Source: an uncultured bacterium (GTDB lineage: Bacteria > BMS3Abin14). Taken from it: a stretch of DNA of 64,000 nt. A program made the position numbers and the translations under genes. The stretch's first letter is position 1. Each line of letters starts with the position of its first letter. Below, piece after piece: positions 5,459 through 58,026 of this stretch. The notes beneath the pieces are model-generated. The model had not been told where the DNA came from. It made no database searches and saw nothing but the letters and a program-made list of their open reading frames with translations. The DNA lies in contig CBFDCL010000001.1 in NCBI GenBank assembly GCA_965603295.1, positions 506 through 64,505 on the forward strand, given 5' to 3'.

Positions 5459-6730
5459 ATGGAGATCCTTCTCGTCGGACTCAGTCATAAAACGGCCCCT
5501 GTTGGGATCAGGGAGAAGATTTCCTTTTCCGAACGGAATTTAGATGAGGGTATCCGTGGACTCGTCGCCTGCCCGAGTGTCCATGAGGGGCTTATCGTTT
5601 CCACCTGCAACCGTGTTGAGATATATGCCGCCGCTACGAAAAAAAACGTCCAATCCGCCCGAGAGGAGATCGCGCGGTTTCTGGCTGATTTTCATGATGT
5701 GGTCCTGGATCAACTTGAACCCCACCTCTACGTTCTTACCGGCGAGGAATGCGTGAAACATATCTTCCGCGTGTCGTCGAGTCTGGATTCCATGATTGTC
5801 GGAGAACCGCAGATCCTCGGCCAAGTCAAGGAAGCGTTCGGTTGCGCGGCCAGTGCCCAGGCAACCGGGAATATCCTTAACCGTCTTCTCCATAAGGCTT
5901 TTTCGGTTGCGAAAAGGGTGCGAACGGAAACGAGAATCTCTACCTCGGCCGTGTCTATTTCCTTCGCGGCTGTGGAGTTGGCTCGGAAGATCTTCGGGGA
6001 GCTTGAGGGCCGGACGGTTCTGCTCATCGGCGCTGGAGAGATGGCGGAACTCGCTGCCCGACACCTCATGGTCGGTGGAGTGGCGCGGATAATCGTTGTA
6101 AACCGTACTTTCGAAAAGGGGGTTTCCCTTGCCTCCGAGTTCGAAGGGGAGGCGGCCCCGTTCGATGAGCTGGAACAGCAGATGGAAAGAGCGGACATTG
6201 TCCTGAGTTCCACCGGTTCACCAAGCGTTATCATCGACAGGAAGATGGTACAGAGGATCATCAAGAAAAGACGCAACAAACCGATGTTCTTTATCGATAT
6301 TGCGGTTCCGCGGGATATCGATTCCGGGGTCAACGGGATTGAAAACGTATACGCGTACGACATTGATGACCTCGAGGGTGTGGTCCAGGCCAACATCAAG
6401 GCCCGGTCCAAGGAGGCAGCCAAGGCGGAAGAACTTGTCACCGGCGAGGTCCGCCAGTTCACGGAATGGATGCGTTCGAGGGAGGCCTTTCCCACTATTG
6501 TTGCTCTGAGGGAGTGGGCCGAAGGGGTTCGGCGCAGTGAACTGGAAAAGACCTTGAAGAAGATGGAGGGTTTAAGTGAGCCCGACTCCAAGAGGATCGA
6601 AGCCATGACGGAGGCGATCCTGAACAAGATCCTTCACCGTCCCATCTCCCGGATGAAAAAAGCTGCCCATAAGGGCTACGAAGAGGATGTCGGTGATATG
6701 GTTAGGAAGATCTTTGACCTTGAGGAGTAA
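5459..6730 (+). CDS. hemA: glutamyl-tRNA reductase
   Basis: 423 aa; MEILLVGLSHKTAPV start, catalytic Cys region (STCNRVEIY) and NADPH-binding GAGEMAELAARHL. Confidence 0.9.
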   Translation: MEILLVGLSHKTAPVGIREKISFSERNLDEGIRGLVACPSVHEGLIVSTCNRVEIYAAATKKNVQSAREEIARFLADFHDVVLDQLEPHLYVLTGEECVKHIFRVSSSLDSMIVGEPQILGQVKEAFGCAASAQATGNILNRLLHKAFSVAKRVRTETRISTSAVSISFAAVELARKIFGELEGRTVLLIGAGEMAELAARHLMVGGVARIIVVNRTFEKGVSLASEFEGEAAPFDELEQQMERADIVLSSTGSPSVIIDRKMVQRIIKKRRNKPMFFIDIAVPRDIDSGVNGIENVYAYDIDDLEGVVQANIKARSKEAAKAEELVTGEVRQFTEWMRSREAFPTIVALREWAEGVRRSELEKTLKKMEGLSEPDSKRIEAMTEAILNKILHRPISRMKKAAHKGYEEDVGDMVRKIFDLEE

Positions 6731-6746
6731 TGCCGACGACATCAAT

Positions 6747-6827
6747 TTCAAAATTCAAATTTCATATTTCAAAAGGTGTACGCGAGTTTCATTTTTTATT
6801 TGAAATTTGAAATGTGAAATCTGAAAT
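6747..6827. repeat. imperfect 28-bp inverted repeat (TTTCAAA/TTTGAAA heptamer arms) in the hemA-hemC spacer
   Basis: Arm 1 is 6747-6774 and arm 2 is 6800-6827, 24/28 complementary; could form a long AU-rich hairpin between hemA stop and hemC RBS. Confidence 0.45.
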
Positions 6828-20151: not shown

Positions 20152-20946
20152 ATGGACTTCATGACCCACACTACCCTTGGCCGAACCGGCCTTTCGGTCA
20201 GTCGCCTGGGCATTGGTGCTTCCTATGGAGCGCCCGCATTCGCCCTAGAAAAGGCTTTTCACGAGCACGGGATCAACGCTTTTTACTGGGGTGCTTTGAG
20301 AAAGCCGAGCATGGGGGAAGCGTTGAAGAACCTGTGCCGCACGGAACGGGAAAAGGTCGTCGTCATGTTCCAGACCTACGACAGGTCCGGGTTTCTTATG
20401 AAACGGCGGCACGAGAAAGGGCTGCGGACACTGGGGATCGATCACGCGGACATCCTGATCATGGGTTGGGCCAACCGGGAGCCCGTGGGACGGTGGCTGG
20501 AAACAGCTGTCCGTCTCAAAGAGGAGGGAAAAGTGAAGCACCTCTGTGTCTCGGGGCATAAGCGGATGCTCCTGGGGGAGATGGCCGCCAGGCCTGACCT
20601 TCCCTTCGACGTCTATATGGTCCGCTACAACGCGGCTCACACGGGTGCCGAGCGGGATGTTTTTTCCTCTCTGCCCAAGGAAAACCCTCCGGGGGTGATG
20701 ACGTTTACGGCCACCCGATGGGGACAGCTCCTGCAGCCGAACCGGATGCCCCCTGGTGAAGAACCTTTGACCGCGGCGGACTGTTACCGCTTCTCCCTTT
20801 CAAATCCCCATGTTGACCTGTGCATGATGGGCCCGAGGAGCGCCGAAGAGCTGGAAAGCGGGTTGAGAGCCCTCCAACTCGGGCCTCTTTCGGATGAGGA
20901 AATGGGAAGGGTGAGGTGGATCGGGGCTCATGTGTACGGCCAGTAA
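20152..20946 (+). CDS. aldo/keto reductase family oxidoreductase
   Basis: AAGAGGA RBS; LGRTGLSVSRLGIGA N-terminal AKR motif. Confidence 0.7.
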   Translation: MDFMTHTTLGRTGLSVSRLGIGASYGAPAFALEKAFHEHGINAFYWGALRKPSMGEALKNLCRTEREKVVVMFQTYDRSGFLMKRRHEKGLRTLGIDHADILIMGWANREPVGRWLETAVRLKEEGKVKHLCVSGHKRMLLGEMAARPDLPFDVYMVRYNAAHTGAERDVFSSLPKENPPGVMTFTATRWGQLLQPNRMPPGEEPLTAADCYRFSLSNPHVDLCMMGPRSAEELESGLRALQLGPLSDEEMGRVRWIGAHVYGQ

Positions 20947-21100
20947 GCCAAACGGTGCGTTTATCGTTTATTGTTTAACGTTTAACGTGGTTTTCCTGGA
21001 CCTTGTGGTTCTTGAATTGATTTCAATCTTGAATTTTAAATTTTTATCTTTTCCAACCACTGTTCACTAATCACTGATCACCAATCACTTGGCTCCATTT

Positions 21101-23299
21101 CTACATCCTCCTGTTCTTCATGTATCCGCTTTTCATGGTTTTTTCCACGTACAGGCAGGCTTGACGGGAAAGGGCGATGAGCTTTTCAGGCCTGGGTTTT
21201 TCACCCTGACCGGATACCGCGGCTCCCAGAGCCAGATCATACCGTCCCCCGTGCTGTTCCCGGAAGTGCTCGATGAGGCGGTCGGCGTAGCCGTCCACCA
21301 GGGATGCATAGGTCAGGATGACAAACTCTCCCTGGGGCCGGCTCTGGATAAGATTGTCCTCCATTCTTCCATCATCCATGATGTGGAGGATGGTCTCCTC
21401 CATATCCCCCAGCGATTCGAATGAGTATGTGTCCTCAGAGGATGTCATGCCCGAGGCCGGGTTCACGTGCACGGTGAGGACTCCCACCGTTTTGCCCTCG
21501 GACAGGCGATTGGCCAACTCACCGGTGAACTCCTCGTCTCCGGGATGCCAGGCTGTGATTCCCCTCTGGGGACTGATGAGACCCTGGGTGGGCAGCGAGA
21601 ACCGGAAAGAGGTTTTCTCCCCGGGAGTGCTTGTGGCGGAAATGGTGCCTCCGTGCTGTTCCACCAACTCCTTCGTCAGGGAAAGGCCAAGCCCGGTTCC
21701 CTTGGATTCCGAATGTTCCTCGGCCGGTTCGTTGAGGATGCCCCTGTAGAAACGGTTGAAAACAAGGGATAGCTCCTCCTCTGAGATGCCTGGCCCGGTG
21801 TCGCTGACCTCGAAAACCGTATGCCCGTCCGAGGTGTGAAGGGCGATGTCGATGTGGACACCCGTTCCGCCGTACTTGATAGCGTTCCCGATGAGGTTAA
21901 CCAGGGCCTGTTCCACCCTGTCCCTGTCAGCGATGAGATTTGGGAGATCTTTTTCGGCGTGGAGCCTCACCACGGCTTTGCTGGCTTCGGCCTGAGGGTT
22001 GAGGAGCTTGACGGCGTTCTCCGCGATCTCGAGGGGGTTGAACGGTTCCTTGGTCAAGGCTAACTGTCCCGACTCGAGGCGGGCGAGGTCGAGGAAGTCG
22101 TTGATAAGCCGGTTGAGCCTCTTGCTCTCGTTGTGGATGATGAAGAGGTAGCGTTCGAGGGGTTCGGGTATGTCGTCTCTCCTGATCAGAAACTCCGAAA
22201 ACCCCTGAATCGAAGTGAGGGGCGTGCGAAGCTCATGGGATACGGTGGAAATGAGCTCCGTCTTGAGGTGATCGAGCTTGCGGATCTGAAGCCGGTCGAA
22301 AATCCCCTCCAGGAGTAGCCCGGAAAACTGCGTCAGGATGGCCTGGGAAACCTTCATCAGTTCCATGAACTCGGGGGAACCCTCCGGAACCGCCGAAAGG
22401 GCAATGCCGAAAAGGTTGTGCCGCGGGGGCAAAAGGCTCCTGAGGAGGCGAAGTCCGGAGCTGTTGAGGAGATCCCAGGCGAACCCCAGTTCCCGGAGGC
22501 GTTCGTTGTCCGGGTAAGGGGGGTGAAGTGATGCGGCAGCCAGGAACTGGTACACGGAGAAGCCGGAGGCGAAATCCATGACCGACATGTTGGTCCCCGT
22601 TTCCGGGTTAATGGTTCCTGCCCATGCCCGGTTGCTGCTCATCTCGCCTACGAGGATCATATGAGAGGATGATCCCAGAACGCTGTTCATCCCTCTGACC
22701 GTAGCCGGGATCAGGCCGGTCTCGATGTCCATGGATTTTCCATGGATTTCCTGGAGGGTGGAAAAGAGGGAGTTCGAGGAGATGCTTATGCGGTCGACCT
22801 CCTCCCACAGGTACAGGTTTTCCATCCCCATCCCAACCTGGAGGGCGAGGGATTTAAGGGTCCGGAGGTTTTCCTCGGTGAACCCCTCGTTCATCGTAGT
22901 ATCGGTGACGTTCATGACCCCGATCAGGCGCCCGCGGCTTTTCAGGGGAACGCTGATAAACGACCTGGTCCGGTATCGGTCCTGAAACTGAGCTGAAAAC
23001 CGGATATCCTGGTCCATATCGGGGACCAGGACGGCGTCACCGGTAGCGGCTACCCAGCCCGATACACCTTCTCCCACGGGGACTTTCACCCCTCCCATGT
23101 TTTCCGGGTAGCGACCGGCCCAGGCGGTCAGGGAAAGGTTCTGTCCCTGGGGGTCCAGGGAGAGGATGGAAACCCGCTCCGCGTCGAACAGCGCGAGGAC
23201 CCTGTTGCAGAAGGTGCGGAGGATCGTGACCTCATCAAGGTTGGAGTTAAGCAGTTCCTCCAGCTCCAGGAAAAGATCCTCCGTGATCTGTCGCGTCAT
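21101..23299 (-). CDS. sensor histidine kinase (GAF/PAS - HisKA - HATPase) with uncharacterised ~170-aa C-terminal domain
   Basis: GAF domain at the N-terminus, H-box (VSHELRTPLTSIQGF), N/G1/G2 boxes (NAIKYG, DTGPGI, GLGLSL), then an extra C-terminal region with no recognisable motif. Confidence 0.8.
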   Translation of the reverse strand: MTRQITEDLFLELEELLNSNLDEVTILRTFCNRVLALFDAERVSILSLDPQGQNLSLTAWAGRYPENMGGVKVPVGEGVSGWVAATGDAVLVPDMDQDIRFSAQFQDRYRTRSFISVPLKSRGRLIGVMNVTDTTMNEGFTEENLRTLKSLALQVGMGMENLYLWEEVDRISISSNSLFSTLQEIHGKSMDIETGLIPATVRGMNSVLGSSSHMILVGEMSSNRAWAGTINPETGTNMSVMDFASGFSVYQFLAAASLHPPYPDNERLRELGFAWDLLNSSGLRLLRSLLPPRHNLFGIALSAVPEGSPEFMELMKVSQAILTQFSGLLLEGIFDRLQIRKLDHLKTELISTVSHELRTPLTSIQGFSEFLIRRDDIPEPLERYLFIIHNESKRLNRLINDFLDLARLESGQLALTKEPFNPLEIAENAVKLLNPQAEASKAVVRLHAEKDLPNLIADRDRVEQALVNLIGNAIKYGGTGVHIDIALHTSDGHTVFEVSDTGPGISEEELSLVFNRFYRGILNEPAEEHSESKGTGLGLSLTKELVEQHGGTISATSTPGEKTSFRFSLPTQGLISPQRGITAWHPGDEEFTGELANRLSEGKTVGVLTVHVNPASGMTSSEDTYSFESLGDMEETILHIMDDGRMEDNLIQSRPQGEFVILTYASLVDGYADRLIEHFREQHGGRYDLALGAAVSGQGEKPRPEKLIALSRQACLYVEKTMKSGYMKNRRM

Positions 23300-23400
23300 G
23301 TTTCAACCTCCTGAGTGATCCTCGGTGGCGCTGACTCCCGATACTGCGACGGGATCGTTTCTCCGGCAATTTATCACAAAACGAAAGGGGAGGTAGGGAT

Positions 23401-23489
23401 AGAGAATTGAGGATTGAGAATTGAGAACTTAAACCAGTGATTGGTGATTCGTGATTGGAGGAAGGTTTGAGGTTTGATTTTTGAAGTTG
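23401..23489. repeat. composite heptamer element E-H-F: (GAGAATT)4-(GTGATTG)3-(GGTTTGA)3
   Basis: Same module order at 24335-24447, 37322-37402 and 61802-61863, at 54124-54200 as the reverse complement, and partially at 27521-27590 and 52074-52148. Confidence 0.75.
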
Positions 23490-23749
23490 CAGAAAATTCA
23501 CGTTGGATGTTTGACGTTGGACCTCTATTCTTCCCGCGCCCCACGCCCTGAGCTTGTCAAAGGGCGTCCCCTTCGCTAATCTCCCGACTGGGCTCTATGA
23601 CCTCAAACTTCAAACACCAAACCGTTCACTAATTATCAATGACCAATCACCAGTTTTTCTCGTTAAACATTGAACGTTAAACATTAAGCGTGTTTAATAT
23701 AAAATTCTTGCGCAAACATTTCCGCTACATCGGGGCAGGGGAGGATGGG

Positions 23750-24283
23750 ATGAAACAGATACCGGACAATTACAGGATCGTTCTGACGGCTGATCAGATC
23801 CAGGCCAGGATCAGGGAGATGGGGGCCGAGATCAGCCGGGACCTCGGGGGTGAGGCCCCGGTGGTGGTGGCCGTGCTTAAAGGGGCCTACGTTTTCCTTG
23901 CGGATCTGGTGCGGGCCATGTCTGTCCCCGTGGAGATCGATTTCGCACAGATATCCAGTTACGGGGACGAGACCGCATCCACCGGACGGATCAAGGTCAT
24001 GAAGGACATCTCCACACCCGTCGCCGGCCGGCACGTACTGGTGGTGGAGGATATCGTGGACACGGGACGGACGCTGCACTATTATCTGAACGAACTGCAG
24101 CAGCGCAACCCGGCTTCTCTGCGTCTGGCGGCCCTCATCAACAAACCTGAAAGGCAGGAGTTCACGCCGGAGGTTGACTACCTCGGATTCACGATCCCCA
24201 GCGGCTTTCTTGTGGGCTATGGGCTCGATCATGCGGGAAGATGGCGGGATCTGCCGGGGATTTACGAAGTGATCGATGCATGA
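23750..24283 (+). CDS. hpt: hypoxanthine phosphoribosyltransferase
   Basis: PRTase motif (VLVVEDIVDTGRTL) and Hpt-type flanking blocks; start at MKQIP. Confidence 0.85.
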   Translation: MKQIPDNYRIVLTADQIQARIREMGAEISRDLGGEAPVVVAVLKGAYVFLADLVRAMSVPVEIDFAQISSYGDETASTGRIKVMKDISTPVAGRHVLVVEDIVDTGRTLHYYLNELQQRNPASLRLAALINKPERQEFTPEVDYLGFTIPSGFLVGYGLDHAGRWRDLPGIYEVIDA

Positions 24284-24334
24284 TCATCGATCACTTCGAG
24301 TCCAAAGTCCAACGCCCAAAGCCCAAAGGGATAG

Positions 24335-24515
24335 AACAATTGAGGATTGAGGATTGAGAATTGAGAATTGAGAAAAAACAGTGATTAGTGATTCGTGATT
24401 GGTGATTGGAAAACGGTTTGAGGTTTGAAGTCTGAGGTTTGAAGTTTTACGTCAGAAGCCAGGATCCATAGGCCAGGAAGAAATTCACATTAAACATTAA
24501 ACAGTAAACGTTAAA
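24335..24515. repeat. composite heptamer element E-H-F followed by an (AAACGTT)n-like tract; direct repeat of 23401-23523 on the other side of hpt
   Basis: E 24335-24371, H 24378-24408, F 24413-24447, N' 24484-24515; preceded by (CCAAAG)n at 24299-24329. Confidence 0.75.
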
Positions 24516-24540
24516 CCTATATGCACCAGGGACTTTCTTT

Positions 24541-25425
24541 TTGAACATACTTTTTTATTTCGGCGTCGTCCTTATCTGGGGGACCACCTGGTTCGCCATT
24601 CTGTTCCAGCTCGGCAAGGTGGATCCCCTTGTCTCGATCATCTACCGCTTTTCCCTGGCTGCGTTGATGCTGATGTTCTACTGCATCCTCACCGGGAGGC
24701 GGATGCGGTTTTCCCTGCGGGACCATCTGTTCATGGCTCTGATGGGAACGTTTCTTTTTTCCCTGAATTACTGGTTGTTCTACGTGGCGGAACTCTATCT
24801 CGCCAGCGGCCTGGTGGCGGTGGTTTTTTCCACGATGGTCATCCTCAACATCCTTTTCGGGGTGGTCTTTATCGGTGCGCCCATACGGCCAAAAGTGGTC
24901 CTGGGAGCCCTTATGGGTCTGGCCGGGATCGCCCTGGTCTTCAGGCCGGAGCTGGCGGCCTTTACCCTGTCGGATAAGGGGTTGTTTGGTCTGCTGCTCA
25001 GCCTTGGAGCCACGATATCGGCGTCACTGGGGAATATCATCTCGGCTCGCAACCAGATGGTGCGGATTCCGGTGATCCAGGCCAACGCCTGGGGGATGAG
25101 CTACGGCGTTCTTTTAATGCTGATCACCGCTCTTCTCACCGGGAAGAAGTTCACCTTCGAGGTCACCGTCAGTTACGTCACATCCCTGTTGTACCTGGCT
25201 TTGTTCGGTACCGTCTTCGCTTTCGGAATGTACCTGACGCTCATCGGGCGAATCGGCGCCGACCGGGCCGCCTATGCGACCCTGCTTTTTCCCATCGTGG
25301 CCCTGGCGCTGTCCATGATGTTCGAGGGGTACCGGGGAAATCCGGGGGCTTTTGGAGGATTTGTCCTGATCCTCGCGGGGAACTTCCTGGCCCTTAGCAG
25401 GATGAAAAAACCCGTTGAGAGTTGA
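24541..25425 (+). CDS. DMT-superfamily (EamA) transporter
   Basis: 10-TM EamA-like profile; probable TTG start. Confidence 0.65.
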   Translation: MNILFYFGVVLIWGTTWFAILFQLGKVDPLVSIIYRFSLAALMLMFYCILTGRRMRFSLRDHLFMALMGTFLFSLNYWLFYVAELYLASGLVAVVFSTMVILNILFGVVFIGAPIRPKVVLGALMGLAGIALVFRPELAAFTLSDKGLFGLLLSLGATISASLGNIISARNQMVRIPVIQANAWGMSYGVLLMLITALLTGKKFTFEVTVSYVTSLLYLALFGTVFAFGMYLTLIGRIGADRAAYATLLFPIVALALSMMFEGYRGNPGAFGGFVLILAGNFLALSRMKKPVES

Positions 25426-25509
25426 GCGTTAAAGGTTGAGGGTTTGTGGTTTGCGGTGATGGGAAAAGTTTTCAGTGCCTCGATGCACCAGTGAACTTGT
25501 GCACTGACC

Positions 25510-25572
25510 CCTCAACTCTCAACCCTCAACTCTCAACCCTCAACTCTCAACCCTCAACTCTCAACCCTTAAC
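25510..25572. repeat. (CTCAACY)7 tandem heptamer array downstream of hcp
   Basis: cctcaactctcaaccctcaactctcaaccctcaactctcaacccttaac. Confidence 0.7.
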
Positions 25573-25581
25573 TTGGAACTA

Positions 25582-27225
25582 TTATTTCCCCAGTGCCTCA
25601 GCCAGGTCCTTGTCCACCTCCCCGATGGGGGCGATGCCGAAGTTGTCCACGAGCACCTGGAGAACGCCGGGCGTGATAAAAGCGGGCAGGGTCGGGCCCA
25701 GTTTGATGTTCCGGATCCCCAGGTGCAGCAGCGTCAGCAGGATGCAAACGGCCTTCTGCTCGTACCAGGACAGGATCATGGACAAGGGAAGGCTGTGAAG
25801 GTCCGTCTCGAAAGCGTCAGCCAGGGCCGATGCGATGCGGATGGCCGAGTAAGCGTCGTTGCATTGTCCAATATCCAGAAGTCGTGGGATGCCGCCGATG
25901 TCACCGAATTCCATCTTGTTAAACCGGTACTTTCCGCACGCCAGGGTAAGGATTACCGTGTCTTCGGGTGCCTTCTCGGCGAACTCGCTGTAGTAGTTGC
26001 GCCCGGGCTTGGCCCCGTCGCATCCTCCTATGAGGAAGAAGTGCCGGATGGCGCCCGATTTTACGGCGTCCACCACCGCCCCTGCAACGCCTAGAACCGC
26101 GTTGTGGCCGAACCCCACAGTGATGTTTTTTGCTTCCATGTCCTCAGCAAAGCCTTCCGATTCAAGGGCAGCCTCGATGACCGGGGAAAAATCGTCATTG
26201 CCAACGTGCCTGACCCCTGGCCAGGCCACGAGGCCCGTGGTAAAGATGCGGGCTTCGTAGCTTTTGCGGGGTTTCTGGATGCAGTTGGTGGTCATGAGGA
26301 TGGCTCCAGGGAACGCATCGAACTCCTTGTGCTGGTCCTGCCAGGCTCCGCCATAATTACCTACCAGGTGACTGTATTTCTTGAGTTCCGGGTAGCCGTG
26401 GCAGGGGAGCATCTCCCCGTGGGTATAGACGTTGATCCCCTTTCCCTTCGTCTGTTTCAGAAGGATTTCCAGATCTTTCAGGTCATGGCCGGAAACGAGG
26501 ATCGCCTTGCCCTTGACCGGCGTGATACGTACCTGGGTTGGTTCCGGGTGTCCGTAAACCCCGGTATTGGCCTCGTCGAGCAGCTCCATGACCCTCAGGT
26601 TGACTTCGCCCACTCTCATGGCCATGGCCACCAGGTCATCCGCCGAATGGTCCGTCGTGAGGTAATCGAGGGCTTCATGGAAAAAGGCGTTTATCCTCTG
26701 GTCAGTTTTCCCGAGAATGAGGGCGTGGTCGGCATAGGCTGCCATACCCTTGAGGCCGTATAAAATGAGTTTTTCGAGACCTGCTGCATCGTCCCCGACA
26801 GCCCGCTGCCGTATGGTGATCCCCACCGCACCGGCCTGGGCGAGGAGTCCGGCTCGGTCCTGGCCGGGGGAGAAGGCGGCTGCTTCGGAAATCTCCTCGG
26901 GTTTTTTCCCTGCCTGTCCGCAGGCGTCCTCGTAAAGTATTCTGGCGCGGTCACGGATTTGGATGCCCTGCCGGATCATGGCCTCGATCCGGTCAGGGTC
27001 GAAGTTCACGTTGGTGACGGTGGTAAACAGCGCTTCGATGACGAAGCGATCGATCGATTGATCCGCGGCCCCCAGTTGCCGTGCCCGATGGGCGTACTGG
27101 CTGATCCCCTGGACTGTGTGGATCAGGAGGTCCTGGAAGTCTGAAGTTTCGTCATCCTTGCCGCACACCCCGAACCTGTCGCATCCGGTCCCATGGGCGG
27201 TCTGCTCGCACTGGTAACAGAACAT
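25582..27225 (-). CDS. hcp: hybrid cluster protein (hydroxylamine reductase)
   Basis: Start [15 protein letters not shown] (N-terminal Cys cluster) with GGAGATAACC RBS; 547 aa; hybrid-cluster ligand regions. The ORF-track N-terminal extension was rejected. Confidence 0.9.
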
Positions 27226-27285
27226 GATGGTTATCTCCTTTTCTAAGATCAAAATAGTATCAGCATATCTTTTGCTGTCATGGAA

Positions 27286-27327
27286 AGTATATCGCGCCTT
27301 GTGCGGAGAAACCTTGACGGGGGTCAA
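27286..27327 (-). promoter_or_regulatory. hcp promoter: CRP/FNR-type palindrome TTGAC-N4-GTCAA centred 29.5 bp upstream of a TATACT -10
   Basis: Palindrome ttgacgggggtcaa at 27314-27327 (top strand), centre 27320.5. The TATACT -10 hexamer is agtata on the top strand at 27286-27291 (minus-strand sense), giving class-II spacing with the site at about -41.5. An AGGAGA RBS sits before the hcp ATG. Confidence 0.5.
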
Positions 27328-27628
27328 TAAACGGTGTTTGACGACCTGGCGAGGGGGCGACTGGGCGACGGGGAGGGAAGAGAGGGATCTAACCTCCAAT
27401 GCTTGCCAAGCCGTAGCTTTAGCGAAAGCTGGTCCAACGCCTGCCCACCGTAGCCTTGCGCGAAGGTGGGTCCAACGGGAGAGGCAGTTCAGAGTGCAAA
27501 GTTCAGAGTGCAGAGGGAACATTGTTGAGAATTGAGAATTGAGGGTTGGAAATCCAAGAATGCCGTTTGCTGTTTGTAGTTTGAAGTCGCGAATTTGAAA
27601 TTGTATGTCTGGAACCAGGAACTAGGTA

Positions 27629-28955: not shown

Positions 28956-29071
28956 TAATCTCTCCGGCAAGAAAATTCCAAATTTCAAAATTGATCTCAG
29001 ATCAAAAAGTTCCTTGTGCGCATTTGTACCCGTGCATTAGTGCATTGAATCACGGATCTCAACCCCAAACC

Positions 29072-31517: not shown

Positions 31518-31921
31518 GATCTCAGTGTGACCGCTTAGCCGGGATCGTGTCAACAGTAGATCCAAGAGGAATCAAAGCCCAATGCCCAAAGACCAAAGAA
31601 AACACAGGTGATTAGTAACTGGTGACCCCTCGACAGGCTTCCTCCTTCGCCTGAAGCTTAGGTGGACAGGCAGGGGATCCGGGGGGTCCAGGGAACAGAG
31701 TCCAGAGTCCAGAGAAAAGAAGGATCCAAGGTCCAACATCCAGGAAAACCACGTTAAACGTTAAACAATAAATGAAAAACGTTATTTCCCTCTGAGCACT
31801 GAACCCTGAACAGCTCTTCTGCCTCATTGAATCCTTGAAGACCGGGTCGATTAAGGATAACCTTTCCTGAACGGATTGGGCCGGTAGGGGGAAACCTGGT
31901 GTATTGACAGGGAGGCAAGAA

Positions 31922-32212: not shown

Positions 32213-32391
32213 TTTCATCACCTCGGTGCGAAAGGCGCAAAGCGCTGGGATGCCCAAAAGGGAAAATCCAGGGATGGGTTGGAAATCTTTGAGGAGACAG
32301 GAGCTTCGATCCCCCCCTCTCCGTGTCTCCGCGTCTCCGTGTCAAACGGTCTAGACAAGAATTAACCTGTCTGTCACATAGAGAACCCCAT

Positions 32392-33449: not shown

Positions 33450-33944
33450 CTAACGGTTTTTCTCCGTGTCTCCGTGTCCCTGTGTCTTCGCGTCTGACGA
33501 TTTACCCCTTAGAGTCTCGATCTCCACGCGGATGACCACGACATTCTCGAGGTCTATCCCGGGAAAATCATATTTTCGGTCCGAATACTGGCCCATGAGG
33601 ATGGCAAGACCCTTTTTCTTGTCCTCGGGTCCGGTGAGGATGCGGGCTTTGCCTGTGCCGATGATGCTGCGGAATTCGGCCGTCCAGGAACAGGCTTTTT
33701 CGCCCCGGGCCAGCCTGTAATGGGAAACAACGGTGAAACAGATCTCGGGGTTTTTCCCCAGGACATCGATCTTCCGGCCTTCAGGAGCGGAGTGGAAGAA
33801 AAGGGCGTCGTCCCAGTAACCAAAGTTTAACGGAACGACGTAGGGCTTCCCGTCGTCCACCATGGAGAGATAACAGATCTCGCCCCGGCGGAGGATGTCG
33901 ATGAGTTCCTCTTGGGACTCAATTATTTTGTCTTTCCGGCGCAT
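33450..33944 (-). CDS. pyridoxamine 5'-phosphate oxidase-like FMN-binding protein
   Basis: PNPOx split-barrel blocks; the last ~12 codons are encoded by a CTCCGTG repeat tract. Confidence 0.6.
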   Translation of the reverse strand: MRRKDKIIESQEELIDILRRGEICYLSMVDDGKPYVVPLNFGYWDDALFFHSAPEGRKIDVLGKNPEICFTVVSHYRLARGEKACSWTAEFRSIIGTGKARILTGPEDKKKGLAILMGQYSDRKYDFPGIDLENVVVIRVEIETLRGKSSDAKTQGHGDTEKNR

Positions 33945-35870: not shown

Positions 35871-37343
35871 ATGGCCATGAACCGGGGTTTTACCGAAGAG
35901 CCTTCCGGAGATCTTCCGGACCACCTGGCACGAGTGAAAAGCTACGTACTCTCGGTTGGGGAATCCGCAGTTGACATTGCGGTCTCCATCCTGGCCCTCG
36001 TTATTGTGGGGCGTTTCTACGGGCCCGAGGGGATGGGCGTCTACACTTTCCTCATGTCCGTCTTTGTGATTGTTGTTTTCCTGTCGGAAGTCGGTATCGA
36101 CAAATGGATCGAAAAGGAACTGGCATCCGAGGGGCAGATTGATACTTCCCGAATGCTTGCCGAGGCAAAGGGCGCGGTTCTCCTCTCTGGACTGGCGGGC
36201 TGTCTGGCGATGTTGATTTTCGGAGCCTGGGCTTCGAAAAGCCCAACAGTGGCCGGGGGTACCTGGCCGGGGTTTGTTCTCCTTGCCCTTGCCGTGCCTC
36301 TGAACCTCAGGTCAGGGCTTCAGGTGTCGGTGCTCCACGGACAGGGAAAGCCCGGTGAGGCGGCTCGAGCGGGGTTCGTCAAACGCTCTGTTTTTCTGGC
36401 AAGCGTATTTACCCTTGCCTATCTTCGCTTCCGGCCCGAGCTGCTCATGGCTGGTTTTGTTCTGTCCGAGGCGGCATCCCTGGCTTCGGCCAGGAGGCGT
36501 GTCAGGATGCCTTCCATAGGCGCGGTTCTCAAGAGGATCCGTGGGGTCGGGGAAACGTTCCGGATGGGCTCACAGTATTATTTTACTCACGAGGCGCTCA
36601 AGGTCCTCTTCTTCGTGGATTTTTTTATCCTTGGGTTGTTCGTGTCTGCCACTCAAGAGGGGTCTTATGCCCAGGCCTCGGTTCTGGCCCGTTTCTTCCT
36701 GCTCATCCCTCTGGGGGCGGCTCCCCTTTATCGGGTCAAAGTGTACAGGGCTTCGGGTTCCGGGCAAGGAGAGATCTTTTCCGATTCCGCCCGGACCGCA
36801 GCCAGGCTTTTCACTCTTCACTCGATGGCGGGGTTGTTGTTCCTGCTCTACTTTCCCCATGTTCTCAGGGTCGTATTCAGGGTCCAAGGAGATACACCTG
36901 TTTTTTTCCAGGTTTTTTCCCTCCTTCTCCCGGGTTTGCTTTTATTTGCTTCCACTCTTGTTCTTGAACCGTTCTTCGGTGCCAGTGGGCGGGAAGAAGA
37001 CCTTAACCGTATCGCCCTGAAGGTTTTCATCCTCAACGCGTTCCTGAACTCCTACCTGATCCCTTACGCGGGGGTCCTCGGCGCCGCAACCGCTACGACC
37101 ATCTCACTCTCCGTGTATTTTGTCCTGTTTTCCAGGGAACTCGGGGAAATCGGTACCATTCCCCTTGGCTCTTACCTCCTGAGCGGGATCCTGGTGTATG
37201 TCAGCTACCATGTTTTATTTCCGGTTCAACCTTATCTTTTCATTGTCTTGCCCCTGGTTTTCGTCGTCCTGCCGGTCTTGTTCTGGGTGTTGGGTTTATT
37301 CGGTCAGGGGCAGGGAAAAAGACAATTGAGAATTGAGAGTTAA
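35871..37343 (+). CDS. polysaccharide biosynthesis protein / Wzx-like flippase (MOP superfamily)
   Basis: About 14 TM helices; the C-terminal 7 codons and stop are supplied by a GAGAATT repeat. Confidence 0.6.
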   Translation: MAMNRGFTEEPSGDLPDHLARVKSYVLSVGESAVDIAVSILALVIVGRFYGPEGMGVYTFLMSVFVIVVFLSEVGIDKWIEKELASEGQIDTSRMLAEAKGAVLLSGLAGCLAMLIFGAWASKSPTVAGGTWPGFVLLALAVPLNLRSGLQVSVLHGQGKPGEAARAGFVKRSVFLASVFTLAYLRFRPELLMAGFVLSEAASLASARRRVRMPSIGAVLKRIRGVGETFRMGSQYYFTHEALKVLFFVDFFILGLFVSATQEGSYAQASVLARFFLLIPLGAAPLYRVKVYRASGSGQGEIFSDSARTAARLFTLHSMAGLLFLLYFPHVLRVVFRVQGDTPVFFQVFSLLLPGLLLFASTLVLEPFFGASGREEDLNRIALKVFILNAFLNSYLIPYAGVLGAATATTISLSVYFVLFSRELGEIGTIPLGSYLLSGILVYVSYHVLFPVQPYLFIVLPLVFVVLPVLFWVLGLFGQGQGKRQLRIES

Positions 37344-37768
37344 GAATTTCAGCCGGTGACTGGTGATTGGTGACTGGGGAACGGTTTGATGTTTGAAGTT
37401 GGATAACCGCGCTGTCATCGCGAGCTGGCATCTGCGCGAAGCGATCCCATAGTGAAGGTTGAAAATCGAGCCTTGGACAGGCTCAGGCCGGGGGAGTTGA
37501 AAATTGAGGATGAACGACAGTGGATCTTTGGGGTCAGAGACCAGCTTTTCGGAAGCCCCAATCCGGATGTCTAAAGGCCAGGGAAAACGGTGATTAGTGA
37601 TTGGTGAATGGAAGATGATGATCAGTTTTACGTTTGAAGTTCAATCTTGGATTCTGAATCTATTCCTTCTTCAACTTTCCACCTTTTTTCTTCCTGTTCT
37701 GTTCACCATTCCCAGTGTTTAACTTCAAACCCGAACATCAACTTCCAAACTCTCAAACTCTCAAACTC

Positions 37769-38806
37769 TCAAACTTTTTTTACGCTTTTCCCCCTGGCAA
37801 GAGCGAAACGGTTGGTCCATTTCTTGGCCGAACCGACGGCCTTATTTTTCGGTTTCAAACCCGTGATGAGCTCCAGGATGTGGCCGGCCTTCGATCCGTT
37901 TTTCAGGAACAGGTTCTTGCATCCCATGCACGAGGTGATGATGGTGGTGCCACTGGAAATCGTTACCGCCTTTTCGGTAAACAGCCGGGCAAGGTCCGGA
38001 TCCTGAGCGGCGAGACTTCCACCGTATCCGCAGCAGGCGGGGGACCCCTGTTCTTCCATCTCACCGTTTACGGCAAGGCCTACGATCCGGCCTGTTTTCC
38101 CGGCCATCGCCTCCACGTGGTAGAAGGGGCACGGATGGTGAAGGTAGAGGTTCTCACCGTCGGGTCGTTCATCCAGGATGTCCTCCGGAAGGAGTTCGAT
38201 CACGTAGCTGGTCTTTACACCGGGCATGAACCCATCGAAAACCTTCTTGCAGTTCGCGCACCCGACGATGAGTCGCTCGACGCCAGCGTGAGAGAGCCTC
38301 TCCCGAATCCGTCCGCATGCGTCTAGCACCGGCCCCGTGTCCCCCATCTGCCACAGGGGATCGAAGCAGCAGTCCATCGCGAGGCCGACATCCTCACCAA
38401 GGACCGTTTCCAGCAACCGGCGTGTGGCCTCGGTGGCTTCAGGGCTCGTTCCGGCCAGGGAACAGCCCGGCCAGAAGGCTGTCGGCAAGGGATCGTAACG
38501 GATAAATGGCGCATTGTGTCCCCTTTCCGCGAAGCTTTTTGCCCCTTTGATTGCCCTGGCGGCGGTATCCGGGAGCTTCCCCGCTTCAATACGGCTTTGC
38601 TTTGTCAGGAACATTGCCGAGGACGGGGAAAGGTCGAGAGGGCACCGATGGTCGCACCCTTTGCAGTTAGTACAGAGGAAGGCAAGGTCAGGCCTGTTGG
38701 AGATAATGTCCTCGGGAGAGCCGTGGGTCTCGAGAAAGGGACAGGCGGGGACGCACCGGGCGCAGGAGGTACAATCGTTCAGGAAATCGGGCACGGAATC
38801 AGACAT
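37769..38806 (-). CDS. (Fe-S)-binding oxidoreductase with two CCG domains (GlcF/HdrD/LutA-like)
   Basis: CxxCxxCxxxCP ferredoxin motifs plus CCG motifs (CCGYGG). Confidence 0.7.
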   Translation of the reverse strand: MSDSVPDFLNDCTSCARCVPACPFLETHGSPEDIISNRPDLAFLCTNCKGCDHRCPLDLSPSSAMFLTKQSRIEAGKLPDTAARAIKGAKSFAERGHNAPFIRYDPLPTAFWPGCSLAGTSPEATEATRRLLETVLGEDVGLAMDCCFDPLWQMGDTGPVLDACGRIRERLSHAGVERLIVGCANCKKVFDGFMPGVKTSYVIELLPEDILDERPDGENLYLHHPCPFYHVEAMAGKTGRIVGLAVNGEMEEQGSPACCGYGGSLAAQDPDLARLFTEKAVTISSGTTIITSCMGCKNLFLKNGSKAGHILELITGLKPKNKAVGSAKKWTNRFALARGKSVKKV

Positions 38807-39290: not shown

Positions 39291-39525
39291 CCGGGGGACC
39301 CGCGAGTCAAGAATGCGGCTTTAAGAGCGGATCCAGGATCCAGGAACCAAGATCCAAGAAAAAATCCAGAGATCAGAAACTAATTGGAAATATGAAGACT
39401 CTAGATTCAAACCACGAATCTCAACTTGAAACCTCAAACTGCAAACTTCAAACACTAACCCTCAACTCTCAATTCTCAACTGCCTTTCCCGTTGGACATT
39501 GGACGTTGGACGTTGGACTCTGCCT

Positions 39526-46589: not shown

Positions 46590-46690
46590 ACCATAAGAGG
46601 GCAAGGAGAGAGGAAAAGGTAGAAAGTAGAAGGTAGAAAGTAGAAGGTGGAAAGGGGAAGGTGGAAAGGGGGAGGCCGTGAGCTTGTCGA
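46590..46690. repeat. (GAAGGTRGAAAGKA)n purine-rich tandem array
   Basis: aaggtagaaagtagaaggtagaaagtagaaggtggaaaggggaaggtggaaaggggg. Confidence 0.55.
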
Positions 46691-46766
46691 AGGGTGGAAC
46701 GTGGAAAGAGGATTGGCCCTGTTTGATTTCCCTTTCCCCTTTCCACTTGAACCTTATTGCTGTTTT

Positions 46767-51062: not shown

Positions 51063-52086
51063 CAGGTTCCCGGATTCCCTTCCGGGGTGTTCCCGTTTCC
51101 CCCGAATATTCTGCCTTCTGATCACGGTTATCTTTCTGGTTTCCGGGTGTTCCGGTTCGCGAAAGCCCGTTCGTGAGACCCGCTTCCTGATGGGGACCCT
51201 CGTCGATGTGATCGCCTACGGGGACCAGGAAACGGCCGCCGAGGCGGTGGGCCGGGCCTTCGAAAGGATGGCGGAGGTGGAAGAGGCATCTCATAGTAAG
51301 GGCTTGGGTTCCCTTCTTGGGGCCATCAGGGACGGAAAGGGTGCCCTTCTTACCGGTGATGCCGCTCTCGTCATGGAAACGGCCCTGTCCGTCGCTGTGG
51401 CCAGTTCGGGGGCTTTTGATCCCACTCTGGGGGAACTGGTGGAACTGTGGGGGATCGCCACCGGTCATCCGGAAGTGCCCGATGACGAGAAGATCAAAGA
51501 GGCCCTTTCCCGTTCCGGGTACCAAAGGATCCCGGAGACAGGGTGCTGTCCCGATGGGATGAAGGTGTGGCTGGACCTGGGCGGTGTGGCCAAAGGGTAC
51601 GCGGTGGATGAAGCGGTCAAAGTGCTGAAGGAGGCGGGGGTCCCCTCGGGGATCGTTAACGCGGGCGGGGATCTGAGGTCCTTCGGTCAAAAGCCGGGGA
51701 AAATTCCCTGGAAGATCGGGATCCAGAATCCCGATGACCCTCAGGATCTGGCGGGGGTCCTGGATGTTAACGAGGTCTCCGTCGCGACCTCGGGGGATTA
51801 TCAGCGATACTTTGAGGTGAGCGGTGTCCGGTATCACCATATCCTCGATTCGACCACCGGACATCCCGCACGGTCAGGGGTCCGCAGTGTGACAGTCCTC
51901 ACGGATGACTGCGCTCTTGCCGATGCCCTGGCCACAGCCGCTTTCGTGATGGGTCCCGAAAGGGGCCTGGGTCTGCTGGAGGCCTGGGAAGATGTGGAGG
52001 GGATCATCATTTCCCAGGACGGTACCTATCACCTGACGTTGGGCATAGGAACGAAGATCCCGTTTGAGAAGCGAATTGAGGATTGA
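51052..52086 (+). CDS. apbE: FAD:protein FMN transferase ApbE (lipoprotein)
   Basis: Lipobox (LVSGCSG); ApbE motifs (DLGGVAKGYAVD, GGD); the stop codon lies inside a GAGGATTGAG repeat. Confidence 0.8.
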   Translation: MMIDRFPDSLPGCSRFPRIFCLLITVIFLVSGCSGSRKPVRETRFLMGTLVDVIAYGDQETAAEAVGRAFERMAEVEEASHSKGLGSLLGAIRDGKGALLTGDAALVMETALSVAVASSGAFDPTLGELVELWGIATGHPEVPDDEKIKEALSRSGYQRIPETGCCPDGMKVWLDLGGVAKGYAVDEAVKVLKEAGVPSGIVNAGGDLRSFGQKPGKIPWKIGIQNPDDPQDLAGVLDVNEVSVATSGDYQRYFEVSGVRYHHILDSTTGHPARSGVRSVTVLTDDCALADALATAAFVMGPERGLGLLEAWEDVEGIIISQDGTYHLTLGIGTKIPFEKRIED

Positions 52087-52324
52087 GAATTGAGAGTTGA
52101 GGATTGAGAAAAAAGTTTGAAAGTTTGAGAGTTTGAGGTTTGAAGTTGTGAATTCAGGAGACAGGAGCCAGAATCCAGAAGGCAGCATTTCTTTGGCCTT
52201 TGGGCATTGGGCTTTGGGCTGTTCTTCCAATCACCAATCACTGGTCACAAATCACCGAAATTTTCTTGGATCTTGGATCTGTTTTGAAATTTGGAATTTG
52301 AAATTGCCTTTTGAGATTTGAGAT

Positions 52325-54123: not shown

Positions 54124-54200
54124 AACTTCAAACCTAAAACATCCAACCAATCACCAATCACGGTTTTTATTCTCAATTCTCAATCCTCAATTCTCAATTT
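54124..54200. repeat. composite heptamer element in reverse-complement orientation (F'-H'-E')
   Basis: caacttcaaacctaaaac / ccaatcaccaatcacgg / ttctcaattctcaatcctcaattctcaa; overlaps the pgeF stop. Confidence 0.7.
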
Positions 54201-54921
54201 TTCTCCCCCTGGCCTTGATGAACGACACCATCCTCTCCCCGTCCCTCCTTGCCCGCCAGGACCAGAACCGGTCTTCGTCACAGGATGTGCATCCAGGGAT
54301 CCTTTCAATGGAACCAGGTGGAATCCCCACGGCAAGTAGCTGGTTTTTCGCCCCTGACGCCAGGTCAAGGTACAGCCCGTTCCCCCGCCGTTGGCAGGGA
54401 CCCTCTGCCCCTGAACCGGGGCAAAGCGTTTTTTGGACATCCTTCCCCACCTCGTAGCAGCACGGGCCGATGGAGGGCCCGAGGGCGGCCACGAGCCCCC
54501 CCGGCTTCGAACCCGTCAGTTTTAGCAGGGCCCTCGTCCCTTTGGCGGCGAGACCAAGGGCCAGGCTGCGCCACCCGCAGTGGATGGCGGCCACTGCGCC
54601 TGTGGACGGATCCCCCACCAGGATGGGAAGACAGTCCGCCGTTCGGATGCCGAGGGGGACTTCCGGAATGTCCGTTACAAGGGCATCCCCTTCGTCGAAA
54701 CGAAACGGCTCCTCCGGGAGGTCTCGCACCACGAGATCAGGGTTTTCTCCGTGCTCAGCGCCCGGCGCCCTGCGCCCTGCGGTCAACACCACAATCCTCT
54801 CCCCGTGGACCTGTTTCAGAATATGAACATTTCCAGGGAGATCGACGGGTGTCGACAGCCTCATTCCGAAACCGTGGTCAAAACCGGCCCGGGTCAGCGT
54901 TGGCGACCGCAGGACCGTCAT
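54187..54921 (-). CDS. pgeF: purine nucleoside phosphorylase / laccase-domain protein PgeF (YfiH)
   Basis: His/Cys triad motifs (HGxxI, TADCLPIL, HCGWRS); the last 5 codons are encoded by a GAGAATT repeat. Confidence 0.75.
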   Translation of the reverse strand: MTVLRSPTLTRAGFDHGFGMRLSTPVDLPGNVHILKQVHGERIVVLTAGRRAPGAEHGENPDLVVRDLPEEPFRFDEGDALVTDIPEVPLGIRTADCLPILVGDPSTGAVAAIHCGWRSLALGLAAKGTRALLKLTGSKPGGLVAALGPSIGPCCYEVGKDVQKTLCPGSGAEGPCQRRGNGLYLDLASGAKNQLLAVGIPPGSIERIPGCTSCDEDRFWSWRARRDGERMVSFIKARGRKIEN

Positions 54922-57650: not shown

Positions 57651-58026
57651 TGCCCTCTCCTGGTTTTGCGAACGGGTCACCCCGGCATCTGGCGGAGAAA
57701 ATGAAAAAATACAGCAAGTGCAGAAGGTTTGCAACGAGGCGACAGTCGGAGGGGCTTGTAAGCAGTGCACGGTGTCTGGTATCTAGAAGAGAAGTTGGTT
57801 GGAGTTTGAGAGTTTGAGAGTTTGAAAGTTGCAGGTCAGTGCAGAGTGTAAAGTGCATCCCCCTTCGCCAAGGCTACGGGGGACAGGGGGTGCAGAGGGG
57901 AAAGTCCGACGCGGAGACACGATGACGCGGGGACGCGGAGGAAGACCGAGATTTGAAGTTTGATGTTTGAAGTTGGAAACACGTTCAACGTTCAACGTGT
58001 TCTTCTTGAATCTTGAATCTTGAATC

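Follow-up and report, generated by a model that had tools for sequence, protein, structure and literature searches.

An ordered heptanucleotide-repeat mosaic on both sides of hpt in an uncultured bacterium

Main

We analysed a 64,000-nucleotide stretch of contig CBFDCL010000001.1 from an uncultured bacterium (hereafter, the window), in which the gene hpt (23750-24283, forward strand) stands between two similar, co-oriented series of short tandem-repeat blocks, each series being referred to here as a composite. hpt probably lies between two paralogous copies of a non-coding heptamer mosaic that is interspersed throughout the genome, and its bracketing is a by-product of that mosaic. The blocks form a heptanucleotide simple-sequence-repeat mosaic of the kind known as long simple sequence repeats (LSSRs) or short tandemly repeated repetitive (STRR) sequences, with an unusual fixed order and polarity, and the case of hpt is an ordinary one. 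The 177-residue hpt product scored 185.5 bits against the TIGR01203 profile (cut-off 150), also matched PF00156, and is a hypoxanthine phosphoribosyltransferase, an enzyme of purine salvage.

Two copies of one composite flank hpt

The composites are built from units that we call E (ATTGAGR), H (GTGATTR), F (GTTTGAR) and N (ACGTTAA); a further unit, K, is AGTCCAA or AGCCCAA (Table 1). The original prediction, made from the letters of the window alone, held that an E-H-F-N arrangement recurs in the same orientation on either side of hpt. For E, H and F this was borne out (blocks within 23399-23523 and 24339-24516). Aligned locally with gaps, the two flanks scored 101 over about 95 nucleotides (nt) at about 82% identity, whereas shuffling the units of the downstream flank gave a mean of 31 and a maximum of 55, with none of 300 shuffles reaching 101, and composition shuffles gave a mean of 17. 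The downstream series also ends in N, after a degenerate CCAGGAG-like stretch that separates it from F, but the fourth upstream block does not: it is 61% like N and was assigned to a CGTTGGA unit family that is present also at 39490-39518. Matching blocks start 940-944 bp apart, in agreement with the predicted direct repeats of about 100 bp at a spacing of 0.9 kb; these repeats are imperfect, however, with an ungapped identity of 76-77% and a longest exact common run of 22 nt.

Comparison with the remaining copies in the window also spoke for the pairing, if narrowly: each flank was the best match of the other, at 101 against 82 for the next-best copies (an E-H-F series at 37317-37404 and the reverse complement of 54146-54202). 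On these alignments we take the flanks to be paralogous copies of a real composite element. They are not an assembly artefact, because the same flanks occur in independent ENA, JGI and Logan assemblies.

Just upstream of hpt, reverse-orientation F, H and N tracts had been proposed. The reverse F and H blocks (F' and H') are indeed there, and with the upstream H-F they make up a 57-nt inverted repeat of 74% complementarity; the supposed N' at 23657-23690 instead runs in direct orientation and matches 24484-24514 at 81% identity in register. The spacer between hpt and the histidine kinase gene to its left (23397-23700) is foldable as a single long imperfect hairpin, H-F against F'-H' (minimum free energy -86.9 kcal/mol; fold z = -3.5). 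This spacer is divergent and no gene 3' end precedes the upstream composite, yet it looks like two head-to-head composites such as occur in convergent spacers. No terminal inverted repeats were found at the ends of the composites, the inverted repeats that do exist pairing block against block, and no target-site duplication was visible in the sequence flanking either composite.

A heptamer mosaic fills the spacers of the window

Period 7 dominates the window: with 21-nt windows and at least 18 matches, lag 7 gave 165 hits, lag 8 gave 30, and lags 3-6 and 9-12 gave none; TRF also reported arrays along its whole length. At a 12-of-14 threshold we counted 57 period-7 arrays, 52 of them with 3-5 units and the longest with 9, and these cover 1157 of 7661 crude non-coding bases (~15%) as opposed to 457 of 56339 'coding' bases (<1%), the latter mostly in open reading frames (ORFs) over-extended into spacers. 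Heptamer families comprise ATTGAGR, GTGATTR, GTTTGAR, ACGTTAA, CGTTGGA, CCAAAGN, ATCCAAG, CCAGGAG, TCTTGAA, CTCTGAA and TTTGAAA, with arrays of the TTTGAAA/TTCAAAA type at 6747, 6798, 17618, 38928 and 52283, and there are two octamer families, GAGTTTGA and TCTCCGTG. Gene callers place spurious small ORFs over such arrays, one example being a 46-residue call at 20930-21070.

The blocks follow a fixed order. Read in their own orientation, adjacent same-strand pairs identified by stringent automatic calling obeyed E<H<F<N in 11 of 11 cases (binomial p = 0.001), six of which lie outside the hpt flanks; counting by eye yields more ordered pairs and a single exception, at 25414-25470. Linkers are similar from one composite to the next (A-rich AAAAMC from E to H and GRRRAMG from H to F), which indicates common descent of whole composites. 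A reading of the composite as one continuous tract in 7-nt phase fits the downstream copy, which has 7-nt linkers, and was rejected as a general rule: by a hand count from coordinates, E-to-H offsets in four copies are 6, 2, 2 and 1 (mod 7).

Nor is bracketing peculiar to hpt. E or E-like arrays stand in the same orientation in four successive spacers (23402, 24339, 25414 and 27525), a patatin gene is bracketed by F' blocks at 29061 and 29931, and a second EamA gene lies between two TCTCCGTG x3 octamer arrays on the same strand (32318-32343 and 33461-33486). A bracket of same-family arrays is not specific to hpt; such blocks fill most intergenic spacers of the chromosome. The second of these octamer arrays sits inside the last codons of a PNPOx gene.

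The hpt flanks are stable in the sampled population

Exact look-up of the Hpt and EamA proteins retrieved contigs from about 14 other samples (ENA ERZ250734xx, JGI 3300011118 and two Logan runs), 99.3-99.9% identical to the window. Fourteen distinct contigs span hpt, and each carries one copy, intact in 13. Neither a length change in the flank arrays that they cover nor a deletion or amplification of hpt was seen in these 14 consensus contigs. hpt was present in all five EamA-anchored contigs that reach upstream, and an exact look-up of the 732-residue histidine kinase, aimed at hpt-less contigs, returned no record. In the fourteenth contig, L092, a 5-bp deletion (CGGGC; L092 3377, window 23912-23916) at about 4x coverage frameshifts hpt and leaves a called product of 121 residues; either an assembly error or a pseudogene allele could account for it.

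Single-nucleotide polymorphisms (SNPs) affect four sites in the hpt-flank arrays: 23430, 23479, 23667 and 24504. Two of them, 23430 T>A and 23479 T>G, shift the upstream copy towards the family consensus, the latter restoring a perfect F unit in L002, L004 and L094. SNP-variable sites made up 0.75% of coding positions, 0.69% of other non-coding positions and, by hand count and with unit indels set aside, about 0.7% of array positions. Only two arrays changed by whole units: the 9-unit array at 25509-25573, with two events (-14 bp in L001; -28 bp in L003), and the octamer array starting at 32318, which is shorter by one unit in L099 (-8 bp, 32324-32331). No filled/empty-site polymorphism of a composite was found among the contigs. 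In the sampled population the hpt flanks are no less stable than ordinary DNA.

These data bear on the proposal, made in the original prediction, that the two copies of about 100 bp serve RecA as a recombination substrate, with deletion or tandem amplification of hpt in the population as the outcome. The copies are same-oriented mutual best matches 940 bp apart, and a deletion between same-orientation E arrays took the neighbouring gene hcp in contig L004 (see below). Three assemblies (L006, L095 and L096) break in the downstream E block, at 24339-24344, where heterogeneity is possible, although any repeated k-mer has the same effect; L094, L095, L096 and L100 start or stop in the 25509 array, at 25537-25540. 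Against recombination at hpt, an exact identity of 22 nt within ~82% similarity is a poor substrate. In E. coli, 22 nt is at or below the minimal length for efficient RecA pairing. The contigs across hpt from ~14 samples retain a single hpt and unchanged flank lengths, and the hcp junction, a 7-bp microhomology beside diverged sequence, is unlike a homologous exchange. The structural variation that had been expected at hpt was thus missing as far as consensus contigs can tell, and we consider RecA-mediated loss or gain of the gene very unlikely.

A gene-sized indel ends on a heptamer unit next to hpt

L004 (the same as L098; ERZ25073479 NODE_2840) lacks hcp: window positions 25427-27523 are absent and EamA is followed by an SRAP gene. 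A three-way alignment placed the junction (L004 8245-8335) on a GTTGAGA unit that is present on both sides; the 13 nt before it match neither side well, and the hcp-less junction sequence contains GGGCCGGTTGAGAATTGAG. This is a 7-bp microhomology, the signature of illegitimate recombination or slippage and not of homologous recombination. Heptamer arrays can thus be the end point of a gene-sized indel, here either a deletion or an insertion. L004 EamA has a different C terminus (292 as opposed to 294 residues). Because the L004 histidine kinase also carries a 78-bp in-frame deletion (window 21958-22035; 732 to 706 residues; 2-3 bp of junction microhomology), L004 seems to be a genuinely diverged strain and not an assembly error. 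For microhomology-mediated deletion of the hcp kind the hpt bracket offers a weak substrate at most, and it is not a device specific to hpt.

L099 was rejected as a structural variant and treated as a probable chimeric assembly. Its sequence follows that of the window until 17 nt into hcp and then continues (6093-6580) as visibly higher-GC DNA encoding OsmC, giving SRAP followed by OsmC, and serves as a warning for structural claims drawn from such contigs.

hpt was in place before the composites

A scan of species-representative genomes for Hpt returned CP070698.1 (L012; a 2.03-Mb chromosome of a metagenome-assembled genome (MAG)) at 84% and JALHUC010000269 (L011) at 82%, the next match being at ≤52%. 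The synteny comparison that had been suggested was run in these two sister species, and the gene order proved conserved with the composites missing: L012 has histidine kinase-hpt-EamA, L011 has hpt-EamA, and the window flanks gave noise-level scores (≤27) against the orthologous spacers of both. Those spacers hold other heptamers (AGTCCAA x4.4 and CTCCTGG x4.9 in L011; TTTGAGA, AGCACGC and CTGCGTC in L012). The sole hpt-flank array orthologous with L011 is the K array after the hpt hairpin (score 55; AGTCCAA x4.4). Judging from these alignments, an array stays in its place while species come to differ in its unit sequence.

Because synteny is kept in relatives that have no composites, hpt occupies an ancestral position and is not cargo, and the E-H-F-N composites on both sides are lineage-specific additions made after speciation. 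Of the predicted footprint of element insertion, the addition of composites around hpt in this lineage stands; the arrival of hpt with them does not. A related alternative would have hpt carried by a mobile unit, with the two composites as its ends, in the manner of a composite transposon or gene cassette. Direct repeats do bound the gene, E arrays part hpt, EamA and hcp in the manner of cassette boundaries, and the presence of hcp varies among strains, but the conserved order in sister species without composites, the housekeeping neighbours and the lack of any transposase, integrase or terminal inverted repeat render this barely credible. Integron-like hpt/EamA/hcp cassettes were rejected as well, given the mixed gene orientation, the kept synteny and the missing integrase. 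L011 itself carries, at 390-654 upstream of hpt, a 133-bp tandem duplication (2 copies, 86% identity) with internal hairpin-like GC-rich motifs, which is unrelated to the composites of the window.

Beyond the sister species, an exact E-then-H junction pattern was found in eight metagenome contigs. Two represent the window's own locus, three come from other regions of similar GC content (55-57%), and the remaining three have 33-39% GC (L103 1640-1850, L105 3390-3424 and L106 482-539). In L103 an N/F-like block follows E-H, and E' arrays lie directly upstream of two start codons. The closest relatives of its glycosidase are Prevotellaceae and Paludibacter proteins, and the E-then-H pair accordingly occurs in a Bacteroidales-like genome. 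It is sporadic there and not a lineage trait: a Bacteroidales relative of L103 with an 80% identical orthologue, L110, has neither E nor H arrays. A scan of viral contigs for the junction pattern gave no match, and hence no sign of a phage vector. The relatives found for the window's own Ffh come from unclassified MAGs, then from 'bacterium BMS3Abin14' (65%) and from Deferrimicrobiaceae (58%).

Composites tend to follow the sense strand at gene 3' ends

E, H and F all lack C on one strand, on which each of them carries TGA, and none of the three units is palindromic. Among 19 strongly skewed array clusters at most 60 bp from a gene 3' end, 17 have G in excess of C on the sense strand of the gene (two-sided binomial p ~0.0007), the exceptions being those at 6743 and 40928. 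Where a spacer is convergent, each composite adjoins the gene with which it is co-oriented (1385-1468; 25507-25573; 37317-37404 with 37740-37778; 52071-52138 with 52227-52248; 54164-54202). Arrays near start codons are of mixed skew, and N blocks end 25-60 nt before starts. The polarity is a tendency and not a law, because the upstream hpt composite lies in a divergent spacer with no preceding gene 3' end.

Such polarity brings up a tentative candidate explanation, namely that the composites are functional polar cis-elements and not passive repeats. In a first putative version, the blocks would be C-free and inert in the sense transcript, whereas an antisense or convergent transcript would meet a C-rich, G-poor Rho-loading tract and gene ends would thereby be insulated; in a second, the block arrays would be sites for sequence-specific DNA- or RNA-binding proteins. 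The skew at 17 of 19 gene ends and the placement of composites beside the co-oriented gene in convergent spacers fit this proposal, but exceptions occur at 27524, 6743 and 40928 and in L102 and L103, and composites also stand in divergent spacers where no gene ends, that upstream of hpt among them. The invariant order (11/11), the narrow range of 3-5 units and the population data (no SNP excess and no length change) would be expected of a selected element, as would the E-then-H pair in low-GC contigs, one of them Bacteroidales-like; sister species nevertheless carry different unit sequences in the same spacer. Binding to heptamer arrays, or effects of them, have been proposed or shown elsewhere (PMC2700814; bioRxiv 10.1101/2022.06.06.494920; PMC4679880). 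The polarity itself could instead stem from selection that removes harmful orientations, or from a mutation bias tied to transcription, and we doubt that it is a positive function of the composites.

Relation to known repeat systems

Among the long simple sequence repeats of prokaryotes, heptanucleotides are the commonest class; they are intergenic, have no agreed function and have been proposed to arise by polymerase slippage (Mrazek 2007, as cited in PMC4679880 and PMC4692102). The LSSRs of Mrazek, Guo and Shah 2007 (units of 5-11 nt), so far as the citing papers describe them, resemble the arrays of the window in being head-to-tail heptamers, over-represented, intergenic and phylogenetically sporadic. 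Tandem repetition beyond chance, concentration in non-coding DNA and copy-number change by whole units were all found here, the last outside the hpt flanks. The window differs from the LSSR descriptions in those citing papers in that many families occur together, arrays are short (3-5 units), blocks have a fixed order and strand polarity is set relative to the upstream gene.

Cyanobacteria offer a further parallel. Three heptamer families make up the STRR sequences of Calothrix PCC 7601, as cited in PMC4692102, and GGGAATC/GGGGAYT heptamer repeats occur in Xanthomonas and Nostoc PCC 7120 (PMC4692102). In Nostoc PCC 7120, TTTTGAA/TTCAAAA repeats affect recF/recO expression, and their deletion altered reporter expression (bioRxiv 10.1101/2022.06.06.494920). 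The window shares with these genomes several intergenic 7-nt families and arrays of the TTTGAAA/TTCAAAA type, but by its Ffh relatives its host is not a cyanobacterium. No tandem pair of STRR1-3, whose units we take to be CCCCART, TTKGTCA and CAACAGT, or of GGGGAYT was present in the window on either strand.

TAACTGA repeats of marine Beggiatoaceae, Cyanobacteria and Bacteroidetes, for which protein binding has been proposed (MacGregor 2015, PMC4679880), are likewise 2-6-copy, TGA-bearing, intergenic and gene-oriented heptamer arrays whose unit is common to unrelated phyla with no visible vector. In Beggiatoaceae, however, one dominant unit lies right before start codons, whereas the window has many units in oriented blocks just after stop codons; TAACTGA itself occurs there three times singly and never as a tandem pair. 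Heptamer and octamer multicopy sites are also discussed for Geobacter metallireducens (Aklujkar 2009, PMC2700814), where TCTCCGTS x3, MTYCTGA x5, GTTGCTYN x4 and GGACCGG x4 occur mostly as inverted pairs and were read, without test, as sites for IHF/HU-type regulators. Both organisms have arrays of 3-5 units in many intergenic copies, G. metallireducens being an anaerobic sediment bacterium. The TCTCCGTG x3 arrays correspond to the G. metallireducens class-2 consensus (TCTCCGTS x3), although both window copies are on the same strand and outside the hpt flanks, whereas those of Geobacter are usually inverted pairs; TCTCCGTG was the only published heptamer or octamer unit found in tandem in the window. 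The hpt flanks differ from the G. metallireducens sites in their units, their direct orientation and their ordered multi-block composites.

Bacterial interspersed mosaic elements (BIMEs) of E. coli consist of repetitive extragenic palindromic (REP) units, imperfect palindromes of about 35 nt in alternating orientation and in hundreds of copies. Like the composites, BIMEs are extragenic mosaics with a preferred motif order that lie after gene 3' ends or between the genes of an operon, with occasional rearrangement between copies. The blocks of the window differ in being non-palindromic heptamer tandem arrays in one orientation, without the REP hairpin. Two further classes were rejected: miniature inverted-repeat transposable elements (MITEs), given that the composites have no terminal inverted repeats, target-site duplication or filled/empty polymorphism, and a phase-variable contingency locus, given that the hpt-flank arrays are the same length in every covering contig. 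Neither ordered multi-block composites nor a strand polarity at the 3' ends of genes is described in the open-access text that we searched, where the unit sequences brought up nothing of relevance except a GTGATTA repeat in Helicobacter pylori.

Features around hpt

Genes and blocks near hpt are collected in Table 1. Chromosomal housekeeping genes lie close by (ffh, metG, tldD and dksA), the gene content of the window, with hcp, is compatible with an anaerobe, and no transposase or integrase ORF was found in the window. The hairpin enclosing the hpt stop codon is kept in L011 (1190-1223), with 4 of 14 pairs altered on both sides; in both the window and L011 it is followed by a K-type (AGTCCAA) array and not by a T-run. 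Scans for sigma-70 promoters and intrinsic terminators at 23200-24700 gave no signal above shuffle expectation, and an Rfam 15 scan of the whole window returned no family at the gathering score.

A second dispersed spacer unit, GC-rich and not heptameric, lies between heptamer blocks. It is recognizable by the motifs CCTTCGCTAA..CTCCCGAC and GAGCTTGTCRAAGGG, and occurs at 1155-1175, 1262-1282, 23524-23598, 27395-27477, 31630-31680, 46670-46700 and 57860-57890. A 38-bp unit of a similar type, x2.2, is found upstream of hcp.

Table 1. Genes and repeat blocks around hpt (window coordinates)
Feature	Position	Strand	Remarks
GAF histidine kinase gene (HK)	21101-23299	-	left neighbour of hpt; 732 residues
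Upstream composite, E: (R)ATTGAGR x4	23399-23427	+	
Upstream composite, H: GTGATTR x3	23437-23458	+	
Upstream composite, F: GTTTGAR x3-4	23463-23488	+	
Upstream composite, fourth block: ACGTTGG/ATGTTTG x3	23497-23523	+	
GC-rich non-heptamer spacer unit (GAGCTTGTCAAAGGG...CCTTCGCTAA..CCCGAC)	23524-23598		related units at 1155-1175, 1262-1282, 46680-46694
Reverse partial composite	23600-23652	-	F' 23600-23623, H' 23630-23652
N block CGTTAAA/CATTGAA x4	23657-23690	+	ends 60 nt before the hpt start codon
Hairpin of 14 perfect bp around the hpt stop codon	24265-24298	+	left arm is coding
K block AGTCCAA/AGCCCAA x4	24299-24329	+	3' of the hpt hairpin
Downstream composite, E: ATTGAGR x5	24339-24374	+	
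Downstream composite, H: GTGATTR x4	24381-24409	+	
Downstream composite, F: GTTTGAR x4-5	24415-24447	+	
Downstream composite, N: ACATTAA/ACGTTAA x4	24487-24516	+	ends 25 nt before the EamA start
EamA transporter gene	24541-25425	+	right neighbour of hpt; TTG start at 24541; 294 residues
E-like array GTTGAGA GTTGAGC GTTAAAG GTTGAGG	25414-25441	+	overlaps the EamA stop; left side of the L004 hcp junction
Longest array in the window, RGTTGAG x9	25509-25573	-	just 3' of hcp; 14-nt super-unit CCCTCAACTCTCAA
hcp (hybrid-cluster protein)	25582-27225		neighbour beyond EamA
E array upstream of hcp	27524-27545	+	right side of the hcp junction (shared GTTGAGA)

Discussion

Abundance, order and synteny together place hpt within a repeat mosaic, and a sequence of steps can be proposed for it. 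Blocks would arise and homogenize by replication slippage that favours 7-nt units. Whole composites may be copied into further spacers, often close by, through a non-reciprocal route, for example template switching or gene conversion; neither a transposase nor terminal repeats can be seen. The sense strand of the blocks is free of C and rich in stop codons, its complement being C-rich, G-poor and of the type that would load Rho, and transcription-related selection could let copies persist mainly where no such C-rich tract falls on the sense transcript.

Several points weigh against our preferred reading of the bracket as a by-product of a passive mosaic. As to stability, the contigs are consensus sequences at 3-6x coverage, in which rare hpt deletion or duplication alleles are invisible, and contigs retrieved through Hpt cannot reveal its loss, which is tested only by the five EamA-anchored contigs that reach upstream. 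The polarity count was made by hand in one 64-kb window on a crude gene map. The proposed copying has left no empty-versus-filled site polymorphism, target-site duplication or terminal inverted repeats that we could find. The strict order, the polarity, the narrow range of 3-5 units and SNPs at or below the coding level suggest constraint beyond neutral slippage, as does the occurrence of the E-then-H pair in unrelated contigs of low GC, of which one is Bacteroidales-like.

For hpt little changes: the gene is ancestral at this locus and stable, and is bracketed only incidentally. The value of the locus lies in what the window, the population contigs and the two sister species together expose about heptamer repeats, namely ordered composites, polarity at gene 3' ends and replacement between species. 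The arrays are stable at 3-5 units, slip at 9 units and are associated with one gene-sized deletion that ends on a unit; they also break metagenome assemblies and create spurious ORF calls. It is possible, though on present sequence comparisons unlikely, that the E-H-F-N composite is a selected, modular and strand-polar cis-element 3' of genes, read with the C-free strand as sense and with its order kept in an unrelated Bacteroidales-like genome. If so, a shared and horizontally spread reader would be implied, either a protein that recognizes heptad arrays or Rho acting as an insulator against antisense transcription, and the heptanucleotide repeats of bacteria would gain a testable function.

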